Assembly (NCBI GenBank): GCA_964461115.1
Contig: CAYWSX010000006.1
Location: 60,892 to 124,891, forward strand
Source: an uncultured Muribaculaceae bacterium
Lineage (GTDB): Bacteria > Cyanobacteriota > Vampirovibrionia > Gastranaerophilales > Gastranaerophilaceae
Length of the DNA: 64,000 nt
Direction: 5' to 3'
The translations under genes were made by a program, and so were the position numbers. Shown one piece after another: positions 2,766 to 58,416 of this stretch (position 1 is the first letter of the stretch; each line of letters opens with the position of its first letter). The notes under the pieces are model-generated. The model ran no database searches. It was not told the DNA's origin and worked only from the letters and a program-made list of their open reading frames with translations.

Positions 2766-3539
2766 TTATAATTTATCAAAACTTGAACGTTTTATCAGCT
2801 TTGCAGTGTTAATCAATGATACTTCTTCGATTTTGAATAAATCGGGGGTGATTGAAGCATTATTGTTAACTATACGGATATATTCAGCGGCAGAAATGCC
2901 GTCTTTATAATTTTCTGCACATTCTATATCAAAATCAAAATATTGCTCTTTGGAATTTACATCATTACTTGTGCAGGTGATGTCAACCCAGCGGGTGTTG
3001 TCGGTTTTATCATTTAACCCGATAAAAAGTTTGTATTCTGCCGTGTCGGCGCCTTCGACTACCTTGATTTCCGCCCCTTCCTTGGGCGTTATTATGAAGG
3101 GCGCCTTGAATTGCAGCTGATTTTCAACAGTGAATGTGCTGTCAGGTATTAGTTCAATCGGTATGATTTGAGCGGAGGCTTGAGCCTGAATTTCAACAGT
3201 GTTTATACCGAGCGCGCTTAAAAAATAGGTAGGTGCAGGGGATGTCGCCTTTATTAGTATTGCCTTTGCCGATTTTTTCGCCGTAATTTCCGTTATTTGA
3301 GCATATTGAATTTGATTGACTTTAAAAAACGAGAAAACTTTGCGGGCTTCAGTTTCTACGTTGTCTTCTGAAATATGCCCGACAGACGTTAGCGCAGTTG
3401 TTTCTATTGCATTTTGGAGTTTTGCGCGTGCCGCCAAAACGAGTGAAAAATCAATTGCAAATGCAGCGAAGACAAAAAATATTGTAAAAAATGCAATCAC
3501 TGAAACCAATGCGCTGGCGTTTTTGCGGCTTTTCATCAT
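2766..3539 (-). CDS. TadG-like (Flp pilus-assembly TadE/G-like N-terminal domain) membrane-anchored protein
   Basis: N-terminal TM helix followed by AIDFSLVLAARAKLQNAIETTAL, matching the Tad N-terminal pattern (..D.g.....r..LQ.A.D.AAL). ATGA overlap with the upstream gene. Confidence 0.6.
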   Translation of the reverse strand: MMKSRKNASALVSVIAFFTIFFVFAAFAIDFSLVLAARAKLQNAIETTALTSVGHISEDNVETEARKVFSFFKVNQIQYAQITEITAKKSAKAILIKATSPAPTYFLSALGINTVEIQAQASAQIIPIELIPDSTFTVENQLQFKAPFIITPKEGAEIKVVEGADTAEYKLFIGLNDKTDNTRWVDITCTSNDVNSKEQYFDFDIECAENYKDGISAAEYIRIVNNNASITPDLFKIEEVSLINTAKLIKRSSFDKL

Positions 3540-4033
3540 ATTCCGTCCTCTTCACTTTCTGCGCCGCTGTTAATTTGAGGTACAAGTGCATCGAGTTCTT
3601 CGGTTGAAATTGCCTCTTCATATCCTTCAAGCTTTGGGGCTTTAAGCGGAAATACTGAGGCTGAGCCCATGTTTATTTCACGCAGTGCCGGCAAAAAAGC
3701 GTAATTAAATCCCGGAGTGTATGTGTAGGTTGAAATAACAGCAGGATAATCTCCTACGGTGATTAATCGAGTTTGAAGGGAGCTTCTGTTCGGCAAATTA
3801 TTCTTTTCAACGTCAATTTTAATATAATTTTTGACTGCGTCTTCAAAATCCTGTTTTTCAGAGTCGGTGTTTATCGCTGCAATATAAGCAGAAACAGAGG
3901 ATTTTACGGCACTTGCCAGCACGAGATTTGCATTCAGTCCGAAGGCGAATTCGGTGAGAATTATAAGGAAAATCACCAAAAGAGGTGCAGCAAGCATAAA
4001 TTCCGTGATTTGCTGTGCTTTCAGCTTTTTCAT
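3536..4033 (-). CDS. TadE-like protein
   Basis: N-terminus KAQQITEFMLAAPLLVIFLIILTEF resembles the TadE-like domain. Translationally coupled (ATGA overlaps) on both sides. Confidence 0.55.
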   Translation of the reverse strand: MKKLKAQQITEFMLAAPLLVIFLIILTEFAFGLNANLVLASAVKSSVSAYIAAINTDSEKQDFEDAVKNYIKIDVEKNNLPNRSSLQTRLITVGDYPAVISTYTYTPGFNYAFLPALREINMGSASVFPLKAPKLEGYEEAISTEELDALVPQINSGAESEEDGI

Positions 4034-6770: not shown

Positions 6771-7547
6771 TTATTGTCTGTAAATGGAATTTAGTATAAC
6801 CCTGTCAAAGTTTTTTCTATCTACCTCTCTTTGCGTTAGGGCTTTAAGTAAATCAAATACAGTGGCTGTTTCCGGGTTGAGTTTATAATATTTTAAAATC
6901 TCATTGCGTGTTAATGACCATTTTTCAGTTGATTTAAGCTCTCCGGAATAATAATCTTTATATAGGTAACCTTCGGCTTTTCCGATTGTTTCTGCAAGGG
7001 TTTTTATTTTCAATTTTCTGGAAATTTTAGTGCCGTCTACTTCTCTGATTGCCAGCCTCCGAAGAAGAACATATTCCGGAAAGGTAATTTGAGAAGCTTT
7101 TTGTATACCATAATGAGGTGCTTTGGATTGCAATATAGACATTCTTTTTGGTGCTTTATTAGTAGGAGTATGGTTCAATATCATTGCTGACAGTTTATCT
7201 GCATTGCCGTTATAGCTTTGTTCTGCTTTTATTAAAGCTTCTTCTAATTTTCTTGGATTGGAAAATCTGGACAAATGATAACTGTCTAAATATTGTACAG
7301 CACGCTTTCTTTCCTTCAAACTATTCACTAAAGTTGCAGGCAAGTGGGACTCTATCCATATAAGAAATTTATTTGAGCTATCTTTTGGGCGTGAACCGGT
7401 AGTTTTGCTGAGTTGCTGCAATGAATACCAGTGATAACCTGAGGATGGACCTTTGTAGCCAAATCGCTCAGCAACTGAATGTCTTATCTCTATGGCGTGT
7501 TTCATAGAGCGAACCGGCAAATATTTATTTATTCCGTTTATACTCAT
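6771..7547 (-). CDS. Hypothetical protein
   Basis: 258-aa ORF with its own terminator. No recognisable domain. Confidence 0.6.
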   Translation of the reverse strand: MSINGINKYLPVRSMKHAIEIRHSVAERFGYKGPSSGYHWYSLQQLSKTTGSRPKDSSNKFLIWIESHLPATLVNSLKERKRAVQYLDSYHLSRFSNPRKLEEALIKAEQSYNGNADKLSAMILNHTPTNKAPKRMSILQSKAPHYGIQKASQITFPEYVLLRRLAIREVDGTKISRKLKIKTLAETIGKAEGYLYKDYYSGELKSTEKWSLTRNEILKYYKLNPETATVFDLLKALTQREVDRKNFDRVILNSIYRQ

Positions 7548-11081: not shown

Positions 11082-11110
11082 TTGACCAAAATAGCAAAAC
11101 TTGATAATAT
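11082..11110 (+). promoter_or_regulatory. Promoter of pilin-like paralog 1 (part of a conserved 5' cassette, 11082-11174)
   Basis: TTGACC (11082-11087), 17 nt, TAATAT (11105-11110). The stretch from the -35 box to the G-run is nearly identical to 17120-17211. Confidence 0.6.
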
Positions 11111-11169
11111 ATAAAAATAAGAAATTTATTATTATGGAGAAGTGTGGAAAATGGCTAAAATATTGACTT

Positions 11170-12093
11170 TTGCAGGGGGGGGGGCGACTCCTAAAAGATA
11201 AAAGTGACAAAAAATTCACTTTTTTCGGAAGTTATCTAAGTCGTATATTTTTTCCTAATTTAATCCCTCGTAAAAAAGCGTTTTCTATTGCTGAGGCAAT
11301 GATTACAATGCTCATAGTGAGTGTTGCTTTGGCAGCCATGGCGCCAGTAATGACAAAAAAGGCTCAAAATAATATGGGCGGTAATTCGAAATGGCTTTAT
11401 ACAAAAAATGGTTCTGATATCACCCGCACAGGAGGGAATGTAGGTATCGGCGTGCCTGCTAATACAAATCCTTCCGCAAAACTTCACATCAAAGACGGTA
11501 AACTATTAATTGAAAATAATTCAGCTATTTCAATTGAAATTGTTTACGATAATGACACAGCACCTGTTTTGCTGAGAAATACCAAGTACAATACGAAATT
11601 AGTAATTGGTCCGAATAATTGGGGTAATACGCTTGTTTCATATGAAAATGACAAGGTTACATCTTTTATGAATAAAAATGGAGATGTCATTGAAAGAACA
11701 GCGAGCGGGGATATAAATAAGACGATTCCTCCTGCTATGCTGGCGTTTTTTGACAGCAATTGTCCTCCCGGATGGACAAATATGGCAGATTGGGGCTGGG
11801 GTGGAAGATTTTTGAGAATAGCCGGCTGGGATAATGCTCTTGGCGTAAATACTCCTCACGGTCAGTGGCAAGATCAAGCAGTAGGCTGGCATGAACATGA
11901 TTTGAATCCTGATATACGCTCGGTAAATGTCCGCTATGGCGGTGGTGGGGGAGAGTGGAGTGTAATTCTCTCAGGAGATGTTCAATATTATGATTGGTGG
12001 GCAAGGTCAACCAGAAAAATCAAAGCTAACGGTGCAGGTGGGGCGGATAATCGTCCTCGGAATATAGCTTTAAATCTGTGCCGAAAAAATTAA
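11170..12093 (+). CDS. Type IV prepilin-like N-terminus plus tail-fibre/tail-collar-like body, paralog 1. Phase-variable; the conserved ATG at 11151 is out of frame as assembled
   Basis: ...RKKA|FSIAEAMITMLIVSVALAAMAP (F+1, E+5, hydrophobic helix). GNVGIGVPANTNPSAKLHI. PPAMLAFFDSNCPPGWT...WGGRFLR. C-terminal RPRNIALNLCRKN. ORF opens at TTG 11170 only. Confidence 0.75.
   Translation: MQGGGRLLKDKSDKKFTFFGSYLSRIFFPNLIPRKKAFSIAEAMITMLIVSVALAAMAPVMTKKAQNNMGGNSKWLYTKNGSDITRTGGNVGIGVPANTNPSAKLHIKDGKLLIENNSAISIEIVYDNDTAPVLLRNTKYNTKLVIGPNNWGNTLVSYENDKVTSFMNKNGDVIERTASGDINKTIPPAMLAFFDSNCPPGWTNMADWGWGGRFLRIAGWDNALGVNTPHGQWQDQAVGWHEHDLNPDIRSVNVRYGGGGGEWSVILSGDVQYYDWWARSTRKIKANGAGGADNRPRNIALNLCRKN
11175..11184 (+). 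repeat. G10 homopolymeric tract (putative slipped-strand phase-variation switch)
   Basis: Counted directly: gca + 10 G + cgactc. ATG 11151 + 24 nt + G10 runs into TAA at 11199-11201. G9 or G12 would restore the frame. Confidence 0.9.
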
Positions 12094-17119: not shown

Positions 17120-17148
17120 TTGACCAAAATTGCAAATCTTGATAATAT
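17120..17148 (+). promoter_or_regulatory. Promoter of pilin-like paralog 2 (conserved 5' cassette, 17120-17211)
   Basis: TTGACC (17120-17125), 17 nt, TAATAT (17143-17148). Near-identical to 11082-11174. Confidence 0.6.
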
Positions 17149-17188
17149 ATAAAAATAAGAAATTTATTATTATGGAGAAGTGTGAAAA

Positions 17189-18280
17189 ATGGCTCAAATA
17201 TTGAACTTTGCGGGGGGGGGGCAAGCTCTAAAAGATAGAAGTGATAAAAAATTCACTTTTTTCGGAAAAATATTAAAGTGCTGTTTTGTTTTATATTCTT
17301 CCTCTTCTAAAAAAGGGTTTTCAATAGCGGAAGCGATGGTCACTTTGTTAATTGTTAGTGTTGCTTTGGCTGCAATGGCACCGATAATGACAAAAAAAGC
17401 ACAAAATAGTATAGGCGGGAATTCAAAATGGATGTTTACCAAAAATGGTAATGATATTTCAAGAATAACCGGAAATGTTGGTATAAATGTGCCTGCTAAT
17501 AATAATCCTGACGCAAAACTTGAAATACGCGGAGAAAATGGAATCGTCCTTACAGTAAAAGCTTCGTCAACTTCAAACAAAGATATAATTGTTGTTCAAA
17601 AGGGCGGGAGAGAGTTGGCAAAATTTGATAAAGATGGCGTTTTGTATCTCAGTCAGGCTATGAATGTAACCAATTCGACTCAAAATACTTCGTGGAATCC
17701 TGTTACAACCTGGGACGGAAATACATGGAAAAATTCACTTCAGCGGGATGGGGGATTGTCAATTAATACGAGTGCTAATCGCCGTGTTTTTAGCGCTTTT
17801 TTGAACGGCACGGAAAGAGTGTGGATAAATTCAGACGGCTCGTCTTCGTTGGCAGGTGTCCCAACCGGTATGGTGGCATTTTTTAATTTGCAAACTTGTC
17901 CTTCGGGGTGGTCGCCTATTAACTGGCAATGGAACGGAAGGTTTCCAAGATTTTCAGGCAATTACGGTATATGTAATTGGTCAGAAAGTGACGGAAATTG
18001 TGACGGAAATGGTCAGAAAGAATGGGTAACATGGAATTGGGTAGGCAGAATGGACGGAGACGCTTCTCGCCCGATATGGGGTGAGTACGGCACTGTTAGA
18101 GGCTGGGGTGCTGATGCCCAAGGTGCTTTTTACAATGCTTGGTGGACGGGGCAAAACGGACGGTCAGATAAATCGGGTGAGGCACAACACAGAATCGGTT
18201 TTAACTCAAATCGTGCGGTTCCTACGGCAAATGAAAATAAGCCAAAATCAGTCGCATTGTTAGGCTGCCAAAGAAATTAG
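17189..18280 (+). CDS. Type IV prepilin-like N-terminus plus tail-fibre/tail-collar-like body, paralog 2. G-tract in frame (ON)
   Basis: MAQILNFAGGGQALKDRSDKKFTFFG...SSKKG|FSIAEAMVTLLIVSVALAAMAP. GNVGINVPANNNPDAKLEI. PTGMVAFFNLQTCPSGWS...WNGRFPRFSG. C-terminal KPKSVALLGCQRN. Confidence 0.85.
   Translation: MAQILNFAGGGQALKDRSDKKFTFFGKILKCCFVLYSSSSKKGFSIAEAMVTLLIVSVALAAMAPIMTKKAQNSIGGNSKWMFTKNGNDISRITGNVGINVPANNNPDAKLEIRGENGIVLTVKASSTSNKDIIVVQKGGRELAKFDKDGVLYLSQAMNVTNSTQNTSWNPVTTWDGNTWKNSLQRDGGLSINTSANRRVFSAFLNGTERVWINSDGSSSLAGVPTGMVAFFNLQTCPSGWSPINWQWNGRFPRFSGNYGICNWSESDGNCDGNGQKEWVTWNWVGRMDGDASRPIWGEYGTVRGWGADAQGAFYNAWWTGQNGRSDKSGEAQHRIGFNSNRAVPTANENKPKSVALLGCQRN
17212..17221 (+). repeat. 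G10 homopolymeric tract, in frame with ATG 17189
   Basis: Counted directly: ttt gc + 10 G + caagct, read as GCG GGG GGG GGG = AGGG. Confidence 0.9.
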
Positions 18281-18358
18281 GTTTTCTTTTATTGAATTGA
18301 CTTATTTAAAATATATTGCTAGGATAGGAAAAATAACTGTTTTTTGGAGAAATATACA

Positions 18359-18877
18359 ATGCAAGATAAGGCAAAATTTTTCAGCGAAATCAAAGGTTTT
18401 TCTATTGCTGAAGCAATGATTACAATGTTAATCGTAAGTATAGCAATGGCTGCGATGGCGCCGATTATGTCGAAGAAAATCCAATCAGACGGCAAATCTT
18501 CGGCAGTTATCCCATCCGGAATGGTTTCTTTTTTCAACTTATCGACATGTCCTAACGGTTGGTCGGCAGTAAACGGATCTTGGAATAACAGGTTCATAAG
18601 AATAGCAAATGGTGCCCGTGCGGTAGGCAGCACACAAGAAGATGCAATGCTTGATGCCAGTGGTGCGATATGGGGGATTACTTCAAAAAATTGGGCTGAT
18701 GCAAATGGAGTTTTTAGGGTAACTGCCAGCCCTGGCTCTGAAGCAAGGGGACAGGGGACAACTTGGCAAGAGCGTACTTTTGAGTTTAGATTAAGTTTTG
18801 ATCCTGCACTCGCAGGTCGAATATCTAATGAAGTCAGACCAAAAAATGTGGCATTGCTTGCCTGTCAAAAAAATTAA
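18359..18877 (+). CDS. Short type IV prepilin-like plus tail-collar-like protein, paralog 3 (short leader, no G-tract)
   Basis: MQDKAKFFSEIKG|FSIAEAMITMLIVSIAMAAMAP. PSGMVSFFNLSTCPNGWS...WNNRFIR. C-terminal RPKNVALLACQKN. GGAG lies 9 nt before ATG 18359 (the ORF track starts at TTG 18344). Confidence 0.8.
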   Translation: MQDKAKFFSEIKGFSIAEAMITMLIVSIAMAAMAPIMSKKIQSDGKSSAVIPSGMVSFFNLSTCPNGWSAVNGSWNNRFIRIANGARAVGSTQEDAMLDASGAIWGITSKNWADANGVFRVTASPGSEARGQGTTWQERTFEFRLSFDPALAGRISNEVRPKNVALLACQKN

Positions 18878-40071: not shown

Positions 40072-41394
40072 CTAATTATTTGAAGGAGTGGATTTGTGGC
40101 TGTTTTTTTTGTAAAAATATGTAATTAGGCCAAAAACGGCAGCAGCAGTTATGCTTATCCCGGTTATTTGTTTTTTACTGAGTTTTTTCAATTCATTTTT
40201 AGCTTTGTCTGCTGTTTTTTTCAATTGAGTTGACGCATTTTCTGTTTCATTATCCAGTTTTCTAAATTGTTCGCTCAAAACCTCGCCTTCATTCCTCAAT
40301 TTAGTTTTTTCTTCGGCATAACTATTGTAGGCAGAAGTAATTTTGCCAAATGCCTCTTCATTTTCTTTGAAAAAAGCCTTGTGTTGTTCAAAGTCAGACA
40401 GTTTAATATTTTTCGGCAATTCAAATCTTTGTGGATAAGCTTTGGCAGCTCGAACCTCCAATGTAATTGGTGGGTAGTTGCCATAGTTATCTCTTGGCAA
40501 AAGTTCCGGCAATGCATTATAGCCTACATAAGGATGAGCCCCTATGAGTGAATTTACTTTTGGTATGATTTGCTGTATTTCTGATTCTGTTGGGGTTTTA
40601 TTGACTTGTCTTAATAAGTCTTTGAATCGTGGCTCATCAAAGGCCTTGCGAATTTCTGTCCAATTGTGGTTTCTGATATCTTCAAACAATACTTCTAAAT
40701 TTTGGTTGTGAGGACTTGTAAAGATTATTTTGATATTGGAATTAGGAGTAGCCAATGTATTTAGGATATTTTTGACTTTTGAAATGTCTTCAGCATTATT
40801 TGCCGTTGGGTCTAAATATTTGGCAAAGTTTTCAAAGTGGAGCAAGGTTTTCTTACCTGTTTTTGCGTTTTGTTCATTTGCAGCGGAAATTGCTTCATTA
40901 ATTTGTGCAAAAAATTGGTTTGAATTTTCTACTGCACTGATTTTTTTAAAATCGTAGTATTTATAGAAGTCCAGACTATCTATGTTCGAATTTTTCGCAT
41001 GCATGTCTATAAAATCTATGAAGGTAGTTGCTAATTCTTTATTTTCCGAGTTTATAATGAAAAAGTTATTATATGGGGATTGTCGGAAAGCACCAAAAAC
41101 TTCCTCCGCGCTTTTGCATAGATTTGCAAATTCAGGCTTAGAATCTTTTGCATTATTTATTATTGCGGAATATTCACGAACTAATTCCGGTAGTTTTAAT
41201 CCTGCCAGGTCGTTACTTAATTTCTTTTCAAGCGAAATAGATCTGTTGGTTAATACCTGATTCTGATTGCGTAATGACTTTTCAGATATTTCAACCGAAT
41301 CGGATTTTGAAGGTTGGCTGCCTCGAAAGGAGACACTATTGGTATTTTGTCTTGCCGATATAGGTAGAACTTGGGTGTTTAAACTAATTTTCAT
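40072..41394 (-). CDS. Hypothetical protein with coiled-coil and C-terminal TM anchor
   Basis: 440-aa ORF. N-terminal RQNTNSVSFRG motif. C-terminal ITGISITAAAVFGLITYFY helix. 11-nt overlap with the upstream gene. Confidence 0.65.
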   Translation of the reverse strand: MKISLNTQVLPISARQNTNSVSFRGSQPSKSDSVEISEKSLRNQNQVLTNRSISLEKKLSNDLAGLKLPELVREYSAIINNAKDSKPEFANLCKSAEEVFGAFRQSPYNNFFIINSENKELATTFIDFIDMHAKNSNIDSLDFYKYYDFKKISAVENSNQFFAQINEAISAANEQNAKTGKKTLLHFENFAKYLDPTANNAEDISKVKNILNTLATPNSNIKIIFTSPHNQNLEVLFEDIRNHNWTEIRKAFDEPRFKDLLRQVNKTPTESEIQQIIPKVNSLIGAHPYVGYNALPELLPRDNYGNYPPITLEVRAAKAYPQRFELPKNIKLSDFEQHKAFFKENEEAFGKITSAYNSYAEEKTKLRNEGEVLSEQFRKLDNETENASTQLKKTADKAKNELKKLSKKQITGISITAAAVFGLITYFYKKNSHKSTPSNN

Positions 41395-42136
41395 CCATAT
41401 TCTCCTTTGCTTCTTGGGTTTCTAAATAATAAGTATATAATTCAGGAAAAAGTTTTTTTGCAGTTTCAATTTCATTATTATTTATTAAGCTGTGAAAAAC
41501 CATAGAATAATACTTTTGCTGTTGTCTGCCTGTTAGATCCTCTTGGAAATATTTAAGAATATTATCAATGTCATTGATATTCTTATGAATTTTATCGATA
41601 TAATCTTTAAATTCATAAGGAGACCCTAATATTACTGCAGCATTTTTAGAAATGTTTTTTGGAGAAGTAATCACTTCTTTTTGCTCATCTGTGATCTTGT
41701 ACACTATTTCAAAACCACCCTGTTCATCTATGTATAAAAAACCTTGTTCGCGCCTAACAGGAAATCCATAGCTGGAGTGAGAACCGAATGTCTGTATCGG
41801 CAAAAGCATTCCTCTGTTTTCAGGCTTGTGTAAATAGTCATATGTTCTATCAGGATTCAAGCCTGTTATACCCGTAGCGTTTGTTATTATATGTTTGTCT
41901 ACGCTATAATTAAAATCTATTTTCCAGCCATACGGTACATTTTTGATCTTTTTATTTTCGTATTTAAATCCTCCTAACCCCAAATATTGATATGGATAAT
42001 CCGGAAGAAAGCTCTCTGGCAATTCACTATAATAATCGCCTTTAAAAGCGATTGGTGTATTTGAGCGGACTAATCGGTTACTAGTTTTACATAAAATGTT
42101 TGGATACGTTGTGTTTATTCTTTGAGTTGAAACCAT
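41384..42136 (-). CDS. Hypothetical protein
   Basis: ORF with GAGG 7 nt before ATG 42136 (alternative ATG at 42148). N-terminal RSNTPIAFKG motif shared with the downstream gene. Confidence 0.65.
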   Translation of the reverse strand: MVSTQRINTTYPNILCKTSNRLVRSNTPIAFKGDYYSELPESFLPDYPYQYLGLGGFKYENKKIKNVPYGWKIDFNYSVDKHIITNATGITGLNPDRTYDYLHKPENRGMLLPIQTFGSHSSYGFPVRREQGFLYIDEQGGFEIVYKITDEQKEVITSPKNISKNAAVILGSPYEFKDYIDKIHKNINDIDNILKYFQEDLTGRQQQKYYSMVFHSLINNNEIETAKKLFPELYTYYLETQEAKENMDEN

Positions 42137-42239
42137 TTTATACCTCATGTCTTTGTGTAAATTATATGGCTATTATAAAAATCATAAAGAATTATTTTGT
42201 TAGTTTGCAGGAGATATTTTTACATTTCTTATAAAAAGA

Positions 42240-49995: not shown

Positions 49996-52900
49996 ATGGG
50001 CTTTTTTGGCGTTTTAAATAACATAAGAGCAAACCGAGACAACTTTAAAAAGTGGGAAAAAGAGGAAGCGGACAATGACGCCCGCCGTCAGGAGCTTTAT
50101 AAAAACAATAAAATGACTGAAGAAGAGCTGGCTCAAAAAAAGAAGCTGGCTGAAACTATTATTGATACGATTTCAGTAATGGACCAAAAATCTGAGGATG
50201 TTGCTGAAGATGTGGAAACGGTAACGCAGCCGATAGTGTCTATGTCCATGACGCTAAGCGGGCTTGCTGCATTTTTACTTGGTTCTGCCTACGGAAAGAA
50301 AAAGTTTAGAGAACGAGGAGCAAAGCTTGATGTAATAAGAAAGCAAATAAACCAAGAACAGCTGGAGCAGATTAGAGAGCTCAATATTTCCGAGGGTAAA
50401 AATAAAAGGTTTAATACTAATGAAGTTTTTTCTCCTAAGAAAAATAAAAAGAGCATACAAATACCAAAAGAGCTTGAATCACTGGTTGCAAAGATTAGAC
50501 GAGAATATGCCGCTGTTACAAAATCATATAAGAAATATGTTGTCGGAATTCCTGTGGGCATTGTTGCTACTGCAATAGGCGGCTTTGTCGCGTCTGTTCT
50601 TTACACCACGAAATTGCAGGTAGGAAGCTCTCGTATAGCGCGTTTTCAAGCAAGAGAAGACCTTGAAAATCCAAAAAACTTTGTTATGTATACAGATGAG
50701 CAAATTGAGCATGCAAAAAAAGAAATCCAAAACAAACCTGAAAAGAAAAAAGGCTTTTGGGCAAAATTAACCAATAAGGAAGATGGTGAAAAAACAGGTT
50801 TAATCTCTTCTGTGGGGAATTTGAAAGACCTTGCGGTTAATAAGAGCCGATATGACAAATGGAAAGCTAAAAATGACAAGCGGGACCCTCGTATCAAGCG
50901 CACATTGACTCCTGAAGAACTTCAAGAGGCTAAAAATGACAAGGTTGTAATACAACGTTTAACAAAAAAAGTAAACAACAAAGCTGAAGAATACTCTGAG
51001 AATATGGAAACAGCCGCGACTGTTATTATAGGCAGTTCTTTGCTTGGAGGGCCTATTTTAGGGGGAAGTGTCGGCTGGATTTTGAATAAATTAGGCTTGG
51101 GTGATAAACTTGCAAGAAAAGTGATAGCTAAGTATGCAGATGAGGATACAGCAAAAATATATGATGAAATACTAAAATTAGACCCGAAAGTTGAAGCGAA
51201 TAAATTCAAGATAAAAGAATTAAAATCTGAGTTAAGGCAGGCTATAGAAATGTCGGGTGAAGGCCCTGAAGATAAAGTAAGACGATTTACCGGAATTATT
51301 GATGATGCACAAGCGGAACTCAAACTTGCAAAAGAAAATAACAATTCGGAAAGAGTTAAAGAGCTTACTCAAAAAATAGACCGAAAATTAGCTGCTTTGA
51401 ATAACATTAATCCTATTGCTATGCCGGATAAAGAAATCAAGGAACTTAGAAGATTTCAAAAAGGTTCGGTTAAATCAGAAATGATCGATGGCGTTAAGAA
51501 ATTTGCAGCGCATGTTTCTTCGACTAAATTAGGCAGAAGTATGGCTATAGCCGGAATAACAGGCATGTTAACTACGGTGATAGGTGCCTATATTGCATTA
51601 AAGCTGCAAAAACAAGCGGGGCGTGCAGGAAGATTCGCAGCAAAACAAGATTTTAAGGAAAATCCGCAGGAATTTATAAATTATTCAGAAGAAGAATTAA
51701 ATTCCGTAAAACATATAACGGCGCCTGAAAAGACTCGCACTCAGAGGTTTAAAGAATACATGTCTTTCCTTCCTCGCGTATTCAAGCAGTATAGGGAGTA
51801 TCGCGCATATAAAAAAGGTGAATTTAAGCAAGAAAAAGCGTTGCGTGAAGAACTCATAAATCTTGAAGTGACGCCTGAACAGCTTCGCGAAGGCAAAAAT
51901 CTTCAAAGAAAATTATTTAATACTTTCGAAAAAATAGATGACAAATCGCAGGAATACTCTGAAAATATGGAAGCCGCAACAGATATTTCGCAGCAATTGT
52001 TGTGGATGGGTAATTATGCTGCTATTATGGCGCCGATTATAGGTACGTCATTAGCTGTTGCATCAGGTAAAATTACAGGTCCGCAGCTTGGAATCAGAGT
52101 AGCAGACTTTTTATCAAGATTCTCGTTCATTGCTAAGTCCAAATTTTTCCAAAAATACGTGACTCAAGTATCTGAAAAAATAGAAGAAACCGTGCAGAGC
52201 CAAGTTATACGAAATTATGGAAATAATGAAGAAAGTCACTTGGCACAAACGCTAAAAGATATGACAGGCGGCGAAAAAGGTAAAAAATTACAATCGTTTG
52301 TAAATCATGCGAGCGAGCCTCTTTTGGTTATGCTTCAAGAAGGTATAAATAAACATCTGCCAAAGCTCCGAGGTGCTATTGAAAAAGCCGATAAAAAATC
52401 ATTAGAATCTCTGATTAAAAAGCTACAAGCTTTACCGGAAGTTGATTCGAAAACAATAACGGAGGCATTAAAAGGAAAAACTTTGGCTGATTTGAGTGAT
52501 TCTAAACTGATTGGTGATCTTTTAAATAGCGTTGGGCTGAAGGGTAAGTTTACTGAAGCTGAAATTAAAGTCTATACAGATGTAGTAAGTAAGGCAAAGG
52601 CTCTTATTCCTAAAGAAGTAGAAAGTTTATTAGCTTCGCCGATTCCACTGTCGAAATCAACAATAGAAACTTTAAACAAGGCTGTTGGAGGCTTTAAAAC
52701 GTCTGAAGTGGAAAAAATTTCCTCTGAGCTGGAAGTATTCTTGTCACATCAAAAAGATGCAGTTCAACTTATGAAAACTTTGGAAAGAGTGAACAAGAAT
52801 ATCCCTGTTGGGGTAATTAACGACGCGGTTAAGAAAATACTTGACATTGCAATCAAAGAACCTCAAAAATTCGCCAAAATGCTTGAAAATCCTCAAGAAT

Positions 52901-53193
52901 TTAAAAATATATTAATGACTAAAAATCTTTCTATGCTCCTTTTAGCGAGCGGCATTTCTTGGGGTGTCTTTACAACGGCAGTTACGTTTGCTATTCAGTC
53001 TTACTTCGCAAAATTGCAGATTGAAGCTGGCAGATTGGGCGTAATGAAGGCTATGGACGAACTCAGTGACCCGACTATTTACGCAGATGAAACCCCTAAA
53101 GAAATTCAAGCCGGCGGTGAGTCTCGTTATATTCCATCGGCTCAGCCTAATGCCTCAATAGCAGGAAATATTCAAAACTTGTTGAAAAAATAA
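49996..53193 (+). CDS. Large (1065 aa) hypothetical membrane protein built from three internal repeat modules
   Basis: Three copies of [..EELxxxK...(E)YSENME(T/A)A + TM ... TM + KLQ...GR..RF.A..D..NP..F..Y]. About six predicted TM helices, with coiled-coil-like spacers. Confidence 0.75.
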   Translation: MGFFGVLNNIRANRDNFKKWEKEEADNDARRQELYKNNKMTEEELAQKKKLAETIIDTISVMDQKSEDVAEDVETVTQPIVSMSMTLSGLAAFLLGSAYGKKKFRERGAKLDVIRKQINQEQLEQIRELNISEGKNKRFNTNEVFSPKKNKKSIQIPKELESLVAKIRREYAAVTKSYKKYVVGIPVGIVATAIGGFVASVLYTTKLQVGSSRIARFQAREDLENPKNFVMYTDEQIEHAKKEIQNKPEKKKGFWAKLTNKEDGEKTGLISSVGNLKDLAVNKSRYDKWKAKNDKRDPRIKRTLTPEELQEAKNDKVVIQRLTKKVNNKAEEYSENMETAATVIIGSSLLGGPILGGSVGWILNKLGLGDKLARKVIAKYADEDTAKIYDEILKLDPKVEANKFKIKELKSELRQAIEMSGEGPEDKVRRFTGIIDDAQAELKLAKENNNSERVKELTQKIDRKLAALNNINPIAMPDKEIKELRRFQKGSVKSEMIDGVKKFAAHVSSTKLGRSMAIAGITGMLTTVIGAYIALKLQKQAGRAGRFAAKQDFKENPQEFINYSEEELNSVKHITAPEKTRTQRFKEYMSFLPRVFKQYREYRAYKKGEFKQEKALREELINLEVTPEQLREGKNLQRKLFNTFEKIDDKSQEYSENMEAATDISQQLLWMGNYAAIMAPIIGTSLAVASGKITGPQLGIRVADFLSRFSFIAKSKFFQKYVTQVSEKIEETVQSQVIRNYGNNEESHLAQTLKDMTGGEKGKKLQSFVNHASEPLLVMLQEGINKHLPKLRGAIEKADKKSLESLIKKLQALPEVDSKTITEALKGKTLADLSDSKLIGDLLNSVGLKGKFTEAEIKVYTDVVSKAKALIPKEVESLLASPIPLSKSTIETLNKAVGGFKTSEVEKISSELEVFLSHQKDAVQLMKTLERVNKNIPVGVINDAVKKILDIAIKEPQKFAKMLENPQEFKNILMTKNLSMLLLASGISWGVFTTAVTFAIQSYFAKLQIEAGRLGVMKAMDELSDPTIYADETPKEIQAGGESRYIPSAQPNASIAGNIQNLLKK

Positions 53194-56782: not shown

Positions 56783-57628
56783 ATGTCTGACAATACTAAA
56801 AAATTTGCTTTTTCTGTGGCTGAAGCGATGATTACAATTTTAATTGTAAGCGTTGCACTTGCTGCAATGGCTCCTATTATGACAAAAAAGAGCCAGAATA
56901 CAGCTTCAGGCAACTCAAAATGGATGTTTACCAGAAACGGTAACGATATTACGCGTGTTACAGGAAACGTCGGTATCGGAAATTCTGTAAGCACTAATCC
57001 TTCTGCCAGACTGGAGATTAGAAATGATACCAGTGACGGTGCTGTAAGAATATACAGGGGAAATACAATGGTAGTCCAAGTTGGCGCAAGCGGAGATATA
57101 TATGTAAATGATAACCGCACTTCAGGCAATGATTCAATTGCCACGGCTCAAAACGGTACTTGGCGCAACGCATTAAGAAGAGATGGCGGGCTTTATGTCA
57201 ACGCCGCAACCAGAACCCAGCGTGCACTCAGTATTAATTCACCGAATGGCGAAACAGCTTGGGTTAATGCAGATGGAAGTTCTTCATTCGGAGTTCCGTC
57301 AGGTATGGTTGCTTTTTTTGCCAGAGCGGCAGGCTGCCCTACGGGGTGGACAAATTTGACCGAGTGGGGCTGGGGCGGATTGTATTTCAGGGTAGCTGAT
57401 GGAGCCAATCCATATAATGTTTATCAAGATTCACAAAATAAATGGCATTCTCACCAATTCCGTAACCAGATGACATGGGATAATATGAATTACAGAAACC
57501 AGACAATAGGGCGCGGTGATAACGGAGATTTGCTGGGACCTTACTATAACGAAGCTGCAATCTTACCCGAAGGCGGCAACGAGGCTCGTCCACGAACCGT
57601 TCCTTTGTACGGGTGTGTTAGAAACTAA
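56783..57628 (+). CDS. Type IV prepilin-like N-terminus plus tail-fibre/tail-collar-like body, paralog 4 (short leader, no G-tract)
   Basis: MSDNTKKFA|FSVAEAMITILIVSVALAAMAP. GNVGIGNSVSTNPSARLEI. PSGMVAFFARAAGCPTGWT...WGG. C-terminal RPRTVPLYGCVRN. Confidence 0.8.
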   Translation: MSDNTKKFAFSVAEAMITILIVSVALAAMAPIMTKKSQNTASGNSKWMFTRNGNDITRVTGNVGIGNSVSTNPSARLEIRNDTSDGAVRIYRGNTMVVQVGASGDIYVNDNRTSGNDSIATAQNGTWRNALRRDGGLYVNAATRTQRALSINSPNGETAWVNADGSSSFGVPSGMVAFFARAAGCPTGWTNLTEWGWGGLYFRVADGANPYNVYQDSQNKWHSHQFRNQMTWDNMNYRNQTIGRGDNGDLLGPYYNEAAILPEGGNEARPRTVPLYGCVRN

Positions 57629-57667: not shown

Positions 57668-57726
57668 ATGAAAATAGAAAATTTTATTTCATGGAGAAGT
57701 ATGGAAAATGGCTAGATTATTGACTT

Positions 57727-58416
57727 ATGCAGGGGGGGGGGCGAATCCTAAGGGATAAGAGTGATGAAAAATTCACTTTTTCCGGAAATTTGAATGGAGG
57801 CAGCTTCAATTTTAATTTCTTTTGCTCTAAAAAAGCTTTTTCTATCGCTGAAGCGATGATTACTTTGCTGATTGTAAGTATGGCGCTTGCTGCAATGGCT
57901 CCGATGGTTTCTAAACAAGTTAAAGGTGTCAATAATTCGATTGATAAAGATGCGTTAAAAAACGAAATAATAAAAGAGCTTCAGAAAGATTTGGTTCCCA
58001 AAGGGTCTGTTATGTTTGTTTCTAAAATTGAGGAATATAAGGGCAATAACGCTTGTCCTCAGGGCTGGCGTAATGCAGGTTCCGCATGGGATGGACGATA
58101 TCCGCGCATGACGACCGATTTCAATGCAATAGGGGTATTGGCTGATGAGTCTTTGCCAAATATTACAGGCTGGCTGCATGATTGGACAAATAATTTTATG
58201 GTAACACATGCCAACGGCGCTTATGTAGTAGGGGCTTCTGATCAAAATGAGCGGACTGCGGATGTTCAAGGTTCGCAAGACCCTTATGCCAACAATCATG
58301 GGCAGATTAGCGGAATTTTGCAGTTTGATGCTTCAAAATCGAATCCTATTTATGGGCGTTCAGGTAATGAGGTTCTTCCCAAAACAGTCCATTTAGCTGC
58401 ATGTGTGAAAAACTAG
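57727..58416 (+). CDS. Type IV prepilin-like plus tail-collar-like protein, paralog 5. Phase-variable; the conserved ATG at 57708 is out of frame as assembled
   Basis: ...CSKKA|FSIAEAMITLLIVSMALAAMAP. NACPQGWRNAGSAWDGRYPR. C-terminal LPKTVHLAACVKN. ORF opens at ATG 57727, 2 nt before the G-run. Confidence 0.75.
   Translation: MQGGGRILRDKSDEKFTFSGNLNGGSFNFNFFCSKKAFSIAEAMITLLIVSMALAAMAPMVSKQVKGVNNSIDKDALKNEIIKELQKDLVPKGSVMFVSKIEEYKGNNACPQGWRNAGSAWDGRYPRMTTDFNAIGVLADESLPNITGWLHDWTNNFMVTHANGAYVVGASDQNERTADVQGSQDPYANNHGQISGILQFDASKSNPIYGRSGNEVLPKTVHLAACVKN
57732..57741 (+). repeat. G10 homopolymeric tract (putative phase-variation switch)
   Basis: Counted directly. ATG 57708 + 24 nt + G10 runs into TAA at 57756-57758. 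G9 or G12 restores the frame. Confidence 0.9.

Follow-up and report, generated by a model that had tools for sequence, protein, structure and literature searches.

A run of ten guanines (G10) at 17212-17221 of a 64,000-nucleotide (nt) stretch of contig CAYWSX010000006.1 (assembly GCA_964461115.1, positions 60,892 to 124,891; hereafter the window) lies near the start of a gene for a 363-amino-acid (aa) pilin-like protein, and we consider it probable that this run is one copy of a contingency switch operated by slipped-strand mispairing. The gene, here called paralog 2, is one of five paralogs in the window, three of which (paralogs 1, 2 and 5) bear such a run. Comparative anatomy, i.e. the way these genes are built within the window and in relatives, lends good support to the phase-variation reading, and from this anatomy we infer the switching itself. 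All run lengths were read from consensus assemblies.

G runs and reading frames

The window has a G+C content of 37% and contains exactly three G10 runs, which are its sole runs of G or C longer than six, the next longest G run having five residues. The census comprises 70 runs of G4, 10 of G5, none of G6 to G9 and three of G10, with all C runs at a length of six or less, and a search for G8 returned nine overlapping matches as compared to 0.21 expected, a number reached by none of 100 shuffled sequences. Each G10 run occupies a homologous position within a conserved module of promoter, start codon and leader. GGG accounts for only 15% of the Gly codons here, and the other Gly-Gly-Gly stretches found in housekeeping open reading frames (ORFs) are all encoded by mixed codons (4/4). 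A contingency locus typically has an uninterrupted homopolymer of about seven or more residues in the 5' part of an ORF; the runs of G10 to G12 described here are of this kind and stand far above background.

In paralog 2 the ATG at 17189 is followed by 23 nt and the run, reads MAQILNFAGGGQALKDRSDKKFTFFG... and remains open up to the stop codon at 18280, yielding the 363 aa that an initial annotation of this DNA had given, with exactly ten G after GC. The run contributes the third base of an Ala codon followed by Gly-Gly-Gly, and the lengths that place the conserved start in frame with the long ORF (ON) are G7, G10 and G13. The same source had described paralogs 1 and 5 as out of frame (OFF) at the same run length owing to a segment of 24 nt, ending in GCA, before the run, and this is confirmed: translation from ATG 11151 and ATG 57708 ends five codons past the run, at TAA 11199-11201 and TAA 57756-57758, respectively, i.e. 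after 16 aa in both cases. Its statement that one of the three run-bearing genes can be translated from the conserved start holds within the window. An alignment of the three 5' regions has a single 1-nt gap, located in paralog 2 directly before the run (GC vs GCA), and the difference is equally readable as GCA plus G9 with an A-to-G change that extends the G9. A fourth locus of the same strain, on contig L004 of either the same assembly or a sister one, shares this module, with 24 nt and a G10 run at 147, and is OFF, so that in the assembled states paralogs 1 and 5 and the L004 gene are each one G too long for the frame and paralog 2 is ON.

When the run was varied in silico from G7 to G14 at these four loci, the long ORF was obtained at every third length only, and both wrong frames were closed 2 to 5 codons past the run. 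The same rule applied to a series from G8 to G14 at two loci of a related species (contig L015, see below), where the wrong frames end after 13 to 25 aa. Thus, in silico, a single unit toggles between a full-length product and an early stop with the OFF ORF being intact; the ORFs downstream of the run in the OFF copies, 192 to 304 codons in length, are all unbroken. A conserved TGA located 8 nt before the run closes the long ORF's frame in the three OFF loci of this genome. The repeat number is polymorphic between the paralogs and the two species, with conserved flanks.

The distance from the run to the codon of the Phe at position +1 of the mature protein is exactly 96 nt in 4/4 loci of the genome set, with only 49 to 67% identity in the segment. 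As the ORFs are intact, this spacing is exact and promoter and start are conserved, the OFF genes are not decayed. G10 was also found for paralog 1 in the Logan assembly of SRR10912417 and for paralog 5 in the Logan assemblies of both SRR10912416 and SRR10912417, two runs of one project; as the Logan contig near rpoD breaks off within the repeated promoter and does not extend to the G run of paralog 2, the agreement covers paralogs 1 and 5.

Based on these findings we propose that the run would gain or lose one G during replication by slipped-strand mispairing and that a change by one G would bring the long ORF into frame with the conserved ATG or put it out of frame. Each gene would then toggle independently and reversibly between making a full-length prepilin and making only a short peptide of 13 to 17 aa. 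The run-bearing leader would be removed by a prepilin peptidase, and as the run is located in this leader, in-frame changes (e.g. G9 to G12) would leave the mature protein unaltered. Cells of one population would consequently differ in the set of receptor-binding proteins that they carry on their pili. Length changes at high frequency in the population, processing of the leader and display on a pilus are all parts of this scheme that we infer.

A conserved expression module and leader

The run is embedded in a module that is shared well beyond paralog 2. In an alignment of seven modules from three organisms the core TTG...TGnTAATATA of the sigma-70-type promoter is invariant, and so are the start codon and the position of the run; each run-bearing gene also has a short AT-rich untranslated region (UTR). 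The run makes up codons 9 to 11 of a 43-codon leader in the three run-bearing paralogs of the window. It lies approximately 64 nt downstream of the -10 hexamer and past the start codon, which rules out a promoter-spacer switch, and the switch is therefore translational.

The five paralogs of the window are all encoded on the + strand, so that the coding strand carries the G run in 3/3 run-bearing genes. Paralogs 1 and 2 are single-gene units, each located after the terminator-like hairpin of an unrelated housekeeping gene, and paralogs 3 and 5 each lie directly downstream of another paralog. A 10-codon upstream ORF (MEK[C/Y][G/E]KWL[K/D]Y*) overlaps the conserved start at 11134-11166, 17172-17204 and 57691-57723; its TGA closes the frame that is held by the long ORF in the OFF genes, and the upstream ORF is present neither in L004 nor in L015.

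Located 15 nt past the run is a small inverted repeat, AAAAGTGA-N8-TCACTTTT, with additional T residues behind it; it occupies 11200-11223, 17237-17260, around 57757-57781 and, in L004, around 172-195, and begins at the stop codon of the OFF frame. No other DNA of the leader is as conserved (80 to 91% identity), and this repeat is the sole element kept in centroid folds and is not present in the L015 leaders. It might act as a weak attenuator that is exposed by early-stopping ribosomes, or its conservation might merely be that of the peptide KSDKKFTFF. The leader RNAs showed no extra stability as compared to shuffled sequences (z-scores of 0.08, -0.96 and -0.10), and neither Rfam families nor tRNAs were found in the window. 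A riboswitch or structured leader was dropped as a candidate because the folds are no better than shuffles and no Rfam family is present. A search with the leader DNA pattern ATGGAGAAGTNTGNAAAATGGCT gave one chance match among genome contigs (a metagenome-assembled genome (MAG) of Ignisphaera) and one among metagenome contigs (an unrelated coding region).

At least six genes of the family bear the leader, namely paralogs 1, 2 and 5, the L004 gene (encoding P0005) and the genes of the proteins P0003 and P0007. The latter two share the leader peptide with GGG, and their G run is deduced from the peptide alone. P0007 is encoded outside the window on the same contig (128,560 bp), and its gene call begins in frame at the start of the leader (MKVLEIKVFAGGGELCHNRSDKKFTFF). 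As paralog 2 is ON and P0007 is in frame, at least two genes look ON in the consensus.

Host and related genomes

The genes next to the paralogs are ordinary chromosomal genes of a diderm anaerobe, including dnaK, dnaG, rpoD, lptF/G and genes for a flavodiiron protein, an SLH protein and a B12-dependent ribonucleotide reductase. The closest named relatives of RpoD are from 'Candidatus Gastranaerophilales bacterium' (82%) and a 'Clostridium sp.' MAG (84%), and the host is therefore a gut bacterium of the Gastranaerophilales (Melainabacteria/Vampirovibrionia).

Contig L015 (JGI 3300010163) stems from a related species and is syntenic with the window, with 92% identity in RpoD and 79 to 87% in the DnaG, HD, DUF561 and NAGPA proteins. 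It has a pilin-like gene with the same module at both positions, i.e. at that of paralog 1 and at that of paralogs 2 and 3. The run after the flavodiiron gene, at 422, is G12 and OFF (ON would be G11 or G14), and the run after rpoD, at 7212, is G11 and ON (189 aa), both lengths coming from one metagenome assembly; the ON/OFF states at the two syntenic positions are the same as in the window. The initial annotation had interpreted the frames as phase ON and OFF, a reading that is backed by the intact ORFs of the OFF genes, the closed wrong frames, the conserved module and this pair of G12 (OFF) and G11 (ON).

A comparison of the window (11281-12093 and 17318-18877) with L015 (517-1149 and 7306-7758) revealed that the syntenic mature pilin-like proteins are only 30 to 43% identical, as opposed to 79 to 92% for the flanking housekeeping proteins, and the family has thus diversified fast. 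Two genes follow rpoD in the window (paralogs 2 and 3), one in L015. More distant relatives have an interrupted run (GGGGGGAGG in L003) or encode Gly-Gly-Gly as GGC GGT GGG (L010), and such interrupted or mixed-codon versions represent the decay or locking that is expected for a run of this kind.

A pilin-like N-terminus and a tail-fibre-like head

All five window paralogs (5/5) contain the motif [G/A]/FS[IV]AEAM followed by a hydrophobic helix, i.e. they have Gly or Ala at position -1, Phe at +1 and Glu at +5. Together with some 20 hydrophobic residues these are the hallmarks of type IV pilins, and they are found in paralog 2 as KKG/FSIAEAMVTLLIVSVALAAMAPIM. The leaders of the paralogs without a run comprise 8 to 13 aa. 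Genes for pilus machinery were not found in the window; pilB/C/D/T have been reported in a Gastranaerophilales genome (PMC5877343).

The C-terminal part is similar to phage tail fibres. The family profile matches the 'Short tail fiber' in PDB 9cuy with E = 6.5e-13 over profile positions 161-310, and the motifs VPxGxVxFF...CPxGW, QxDAIRNITG and, near the C-terminus, ENRPK are common to both, so that profile similarity as well as motifs relate the family to tail-fibre/collar domains. PHROG tail-fibre and tail-collar families match paralogs 1, 3 and 5, P0003 and the L015 protein L015_B; paralog 2 searched alone gave no tail-fibre match. The Pfam families Collar and Gp10_C match P0003 and P0019 weakly, Collar remaining below threshold. 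Judged by sequence, the architecture is that of a modular pilin, a putative pilin N-terminus being fused to a tail-fibre-like head.

A word-based search yielded 20 family matches among 5.8 billion proteins, by which measure the family is rare, and a broader profile search 507 clusters at 50% identity (E <= 1e-10). Of 187 retrieved family proteins, 147 contain the pilin motif, and the leaders of these 147 fall into two size classes, 5 to 15 aa and 25 to 55 aa. In thirteen leaders of the long class GGG or GGGG occurs near residues 2 to 20, and others have GEG, GKG or EGA there; the occurrence of GGG, GGGG, GEG and GKG leaders in many of the clusters suggests that the design is old and widespread in the group. 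A search of viral contigs found no relative.

Whether the system as a whole is a portable phase-variable cassette of promoter, UTR, start, poly-G and long leader, placed in a gut Melainabacteria clade before at least six scattered and fast-diversifying modular pilins with heads derived from the receptor-binding domains of phage tail fibres, is in our view an even bet.

Alternative explanations

Several observations weigh against a slipped-strand switch acting on pilins. The run is G10 in every assembly of the strain, and within-strain variation in length was not seen in these consensus assemblies; the identical length at all four loci could reflect a stable run or homogenisation between the copies. 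Paralog 5 and the L004 gene have an in-frame TTG downstream of the run (at 57790 and 214, respectively), which could allow leaky expression independent of the run. The relative L010 keeps Gly-Gly-Gly with non-slippery codons, which means that conservation may partly act at the level of the peptide. As to the pilin assignment, the match to Pfam N_methyl is below threshold (19.4 vs 21.2 bits), and the leader, 43 aa long and basic, is unusually long for a prepilin. An AlphaFold2 model of the paralog 2 protein (P0001), based on 17 sequences, is too poor to confirm a pilin fold, with a mean predicted local distance difference test score (pLDDT) of 49.6 and a predicted template modelling score (pTM) of 0.24; within this model, which is of low confidence throughout, an N-terminal helix is predicted at residues 46-62.

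Four other explanations have to be considered, all of which fit the data less well than the slipped-strand model. First, the frameshifts may be fixed, i.e. paralogs 1 and 5 and the L004 gene would be young pseudogenes or permanently silenced, paralog 2 would be the working copy rescued by its 1-nt change, and the run would have no useful switching rate. Pseudogenes are frequent in surface-protein gene families, and the constant G10 of the strain's consensus assemblies speaks for this explanation as well. We nevertheless consider it unlikely, as the ORFs of 192 to 304 codons past the run are unbroken in every OFF copy, the length of the leader is exactly conserved, as are promoter and start, and drift would not keep uninterrupted runs of G10 to G12 at a G+C content of 37%. 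Moreover, the corresponding locus of L015 holds an OFF copy whose G12 is uninterrupted, and the OFF-capable design has therefore persisted across species.

Second, decoding may be non-heritable, with slippage of RNA polymerase or ribosomal frameshifting on the run letting every locus make full-length protein at a low and constant level, in which case the assembled frame would not define ON and OFF. Transcriptional slippage can arise at long homopolymers, it is compatible with the sequence, and the early stops in both wrong frames fit either model. The well-documented bacterial slippage sites are, however, mostly runs of A or T, a structure that could stimulate frameshifting was not found when the leader folds were compared to shuffles, and the differences in run length and frame between paralogs and species would be left unexplained. 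Thus, we regard this explanation as decidedly improbable.

Third, homopolymers may have been miscalled in sequencing or assembly, all genes truly being in frame. G runs of ten or more are error-prone on several platforms, and the G11 and G12 of L015 rest on a single metagenome assembly. Yet it is the flanking base (GC vs GCA) rather than the run length that puts paralog 2 in frame, the NCBI assembly and the Logan assemblies of two runs concur on G10, and the public gene calls fit the assembled frames, P0014 being truncated, P0260 starting at ATG 57727 and P0001 being full length, which makes an artefact very unlikely.

Finally, the initial annotation had taken the single ON gene as the pattern to be seen in a population that expresses its variants one at a time; on this explanation the offset of 23 vs 24 nt would be a design that keeps only one locus ON. 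This fits the one ON gene among three in the window and the fact that the locus downstream of rpoD is ON and that downstream of the flavodiiron gene OFF in both this genome and L015, but it hardly deserves credence, as there are at least six leader-bearing genes, among them that of P0007 on the same contig, which appears to be ON as well. The loci are unlinked and have separate promoters, neither a regulator nor a recombination site common to them was found, and the two paralogs without a run would be expressed regardless. A consensus assembly cannot reveal mutual exclusivity, and independent stochastic switching of each locus is the simpler expectation.

Gene calls

The long ORF of the OFF genes extends back through the run, to TTG 11170 in paralog 1 and to ATG 57727 in paralog 5, and ORF lists and gene callers for this reason give products of 307 aa and 229 aa, respectively. 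We reject both codons as true starts, since they lack a Shine-Dalgarno sequence, have an in-frame TGA 3 nt upstream and are without a counterpart in L004. Among the public calls, P0014 (OFF paralog 1) begins inside the helix and is truncated, P0005 (the L004 gene) begins at an internal TTG and P0260 (paralog 5) at ATG 57727; the protein of paralog 2 is present in NCBI at full length (P0001). With the OFF genes called at unsupported starts or truncated, the annotation of the family is systematically misleading, and gene callers truncate or mis-start these genes. At least 10 family proteins are called from inside the N-terminal helix like P0014, which could also be explained by contig ends.

Comparison with known systems

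Poly-G contingency mechanisms are well known in pathogens and have not been described before in this lineage or protein family; a literature search found nothing on phase variation in Gastranaerophilales. The closest parallel in mechanism is pilC1/pilC2 of Neisseria, and the closest in genome style the poly-G loci of Campylobacter jejuni.

In N. gonorrhoeae and N. meningitidis pilC1 and pilC2, which encode a pilus adhesin, carry a homo-G run in the region of the signal peptide, and only some of the paralogs are ON in a given strain (PMC5354566). As in our case, poly-G lies in a part coding for an N-terminal signal that is removed, a frameshift turns a pilus-associated protein on or off (by prediction here), and there are two or more paralogs. 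Nevertheless, PilC/PilY1 is not a pilin but a large protein of the pilus tip and has a Sec-type signal peptide, whereas the proteins described here are pilin-like, have a putative class III (prepilin-type) leader and show no homology to it; the C-terminal beta-propeller of PilC/PilY1 has no Pfam match in the family, and the likeness is thus one of mechanism only. In addition, at least six copies with a conserved promoter and leader cassette are present here, and the host belongs to the Melainabacteria, not to the Proteobacteria.

The poly-G/C loci of C. jejuni have a modal length of 9, and their mutability increases with length (PMC3401435; PMC4965091), which matches G9 ON and the G10 to G12 observed here. 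Both genomes are low in G+C and have rare G runs of about 9 to 11 that are confined to surface-related genes and would act as intragenic ON/OFF switches. The C. jejuni loci, however, are mostly genes for glycosyltransferases, restriction-modification and flagellar modification with unrelated 5' ends, whereas one conserved 5' module is reused here on paralogs of a single structural family, and rates have been measured in C. jejuni whereas switching is deduced here.

Modular type IV pilins are represented by PilB and PilC of Streptococcus sanguinis, in which a binding module gives the pilus its adhesive specificity (PMC8179133, PMC9934059). In both cases a pilin N-terminal module appears to be fused to a second module, for which binding is predicted here. 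The grafted module of our family resembles a phage tail fibre or collar domain instead and the leader has about 43 aa; the S. sanguinis genes are not known to undergo poly-G switching.

Shufflon PilV and a fusion of PilV with a tail-collar domain are diversified by programmed inversion (PMC9881135). They rely on a minor type IV pilin with a variable C-terminal receptor-binding part and on a programmed change in DNA that diversifies the population, as the system described here would. In the shufflon, site-specific inversion swaps C-terminal segments within one gene, whereas here separate complete genes would be turned ON or OFF by frameshifting, with neither a recombinase nor inverted repeats being involved.

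Gastranaerophilales are common in human and animal guts and uncultured, and their interactions with host, phages and other microbes are almost unknown. If the slipped-strand model is correct, a set of stochastically switched pilin-like proteins whose heads resemble tail fibres would suggest that surfaces are recognised under fluctuating selection, for which host immunity, phage receptors and targets of attachment are candidate pressures. Poly-G contingency genes would then extend beyond a few genera of pathogens, to commensal relatives of the cyanobacteria. On the cassette reading given above, six independently switching loci would allow up to 64 combinations at the pilus tip, and no earlier contingency-locus system would have been described in this sister lineage of the cyanobacteria. 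The loci can be traced in existing metagenomic reads without culture.

Features of the window and minor observations

Table 1. Positions of the module elements, G runs and pilin-like genes in the window
Feature	Position	Strand	Remarks
Paralog 1, promoter-like site	11082-11110	+	Same element as in paralog 2
Paralog 1	11151-12093	+	ATG 11151, G10, OFF; ON at G9 or G12 (313 or 314 aa)
Paralog 1, G10 run	11175-11184	+	Out of frame
Paralog 2, promoter-like site	17120-17148	+	TTGACC, 17 nt, TAATAT; TG before the -10 hexamer (extended -10)
Paralog 2, ribosome-binding region and start	17172-17191	+	GGAG 17174-17177; ATG 17189-17191
Paralog 2, segment before the run	17189-17211	+	23 nt, ends in GC rather than GCA
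Paralog 2, long leader peptide	17189-17317	+	43 codons; ends in KKG before FSIAEAM
Paralog 2, G10 run	17212-17221	+	Preceded by GC; in frame
Paralog 2, small inverted repeat in leader	17237-17260	+	AGAAGTGA-N8-TCACTTTT
Paralog 2, mature pilin-like protein	17318-18280	+	320 aa and stop; hydrophobic N-terminal helix, tail-fibre-like C-terminal domain
Paralog 3	18359-18877	+	No G run; 13-aa leader (MQDKAKFFSEIKG/F); own promoter-like site at 18297-18325
Paralog 4 (P0006)	56783-57628	+	No G run; short leader (MSDNTKKFA/F)
Paralog 5	57708-58416	+	ATG 57708, G10, OFF; ON at G9 or G12 (235 or 236 aa)
Paralog 5, G10 run	57732-57741	+	Out of frame

Apart from the pilin-like genes, the window contains a 1065-aa ORF at 49996-53193 on the + strand without a Pfam or NCBIfam match and two ORFs on the - strand, 40072-41394 and 41384-42148, without a Pfam match. 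A G7 run is located at 2211-2217 of contig L009 (Logan assembly of SRR10912417, apparently the same strain), 4 nt before the ATG that starts an HTH_3-family gene, and could simply be a strong ribosome-binding site or another length-variable element. In the distant relative L010 a frameshift, located at a T6 run (gcttttttaat) immediately ahead of CPxGW, splits a pilin-like gene (3001-3932) into ORFs of 118 aa and 184 aa, and the split is identical in four independent contigs from ENA metagenomes (L010 and L011-L013).

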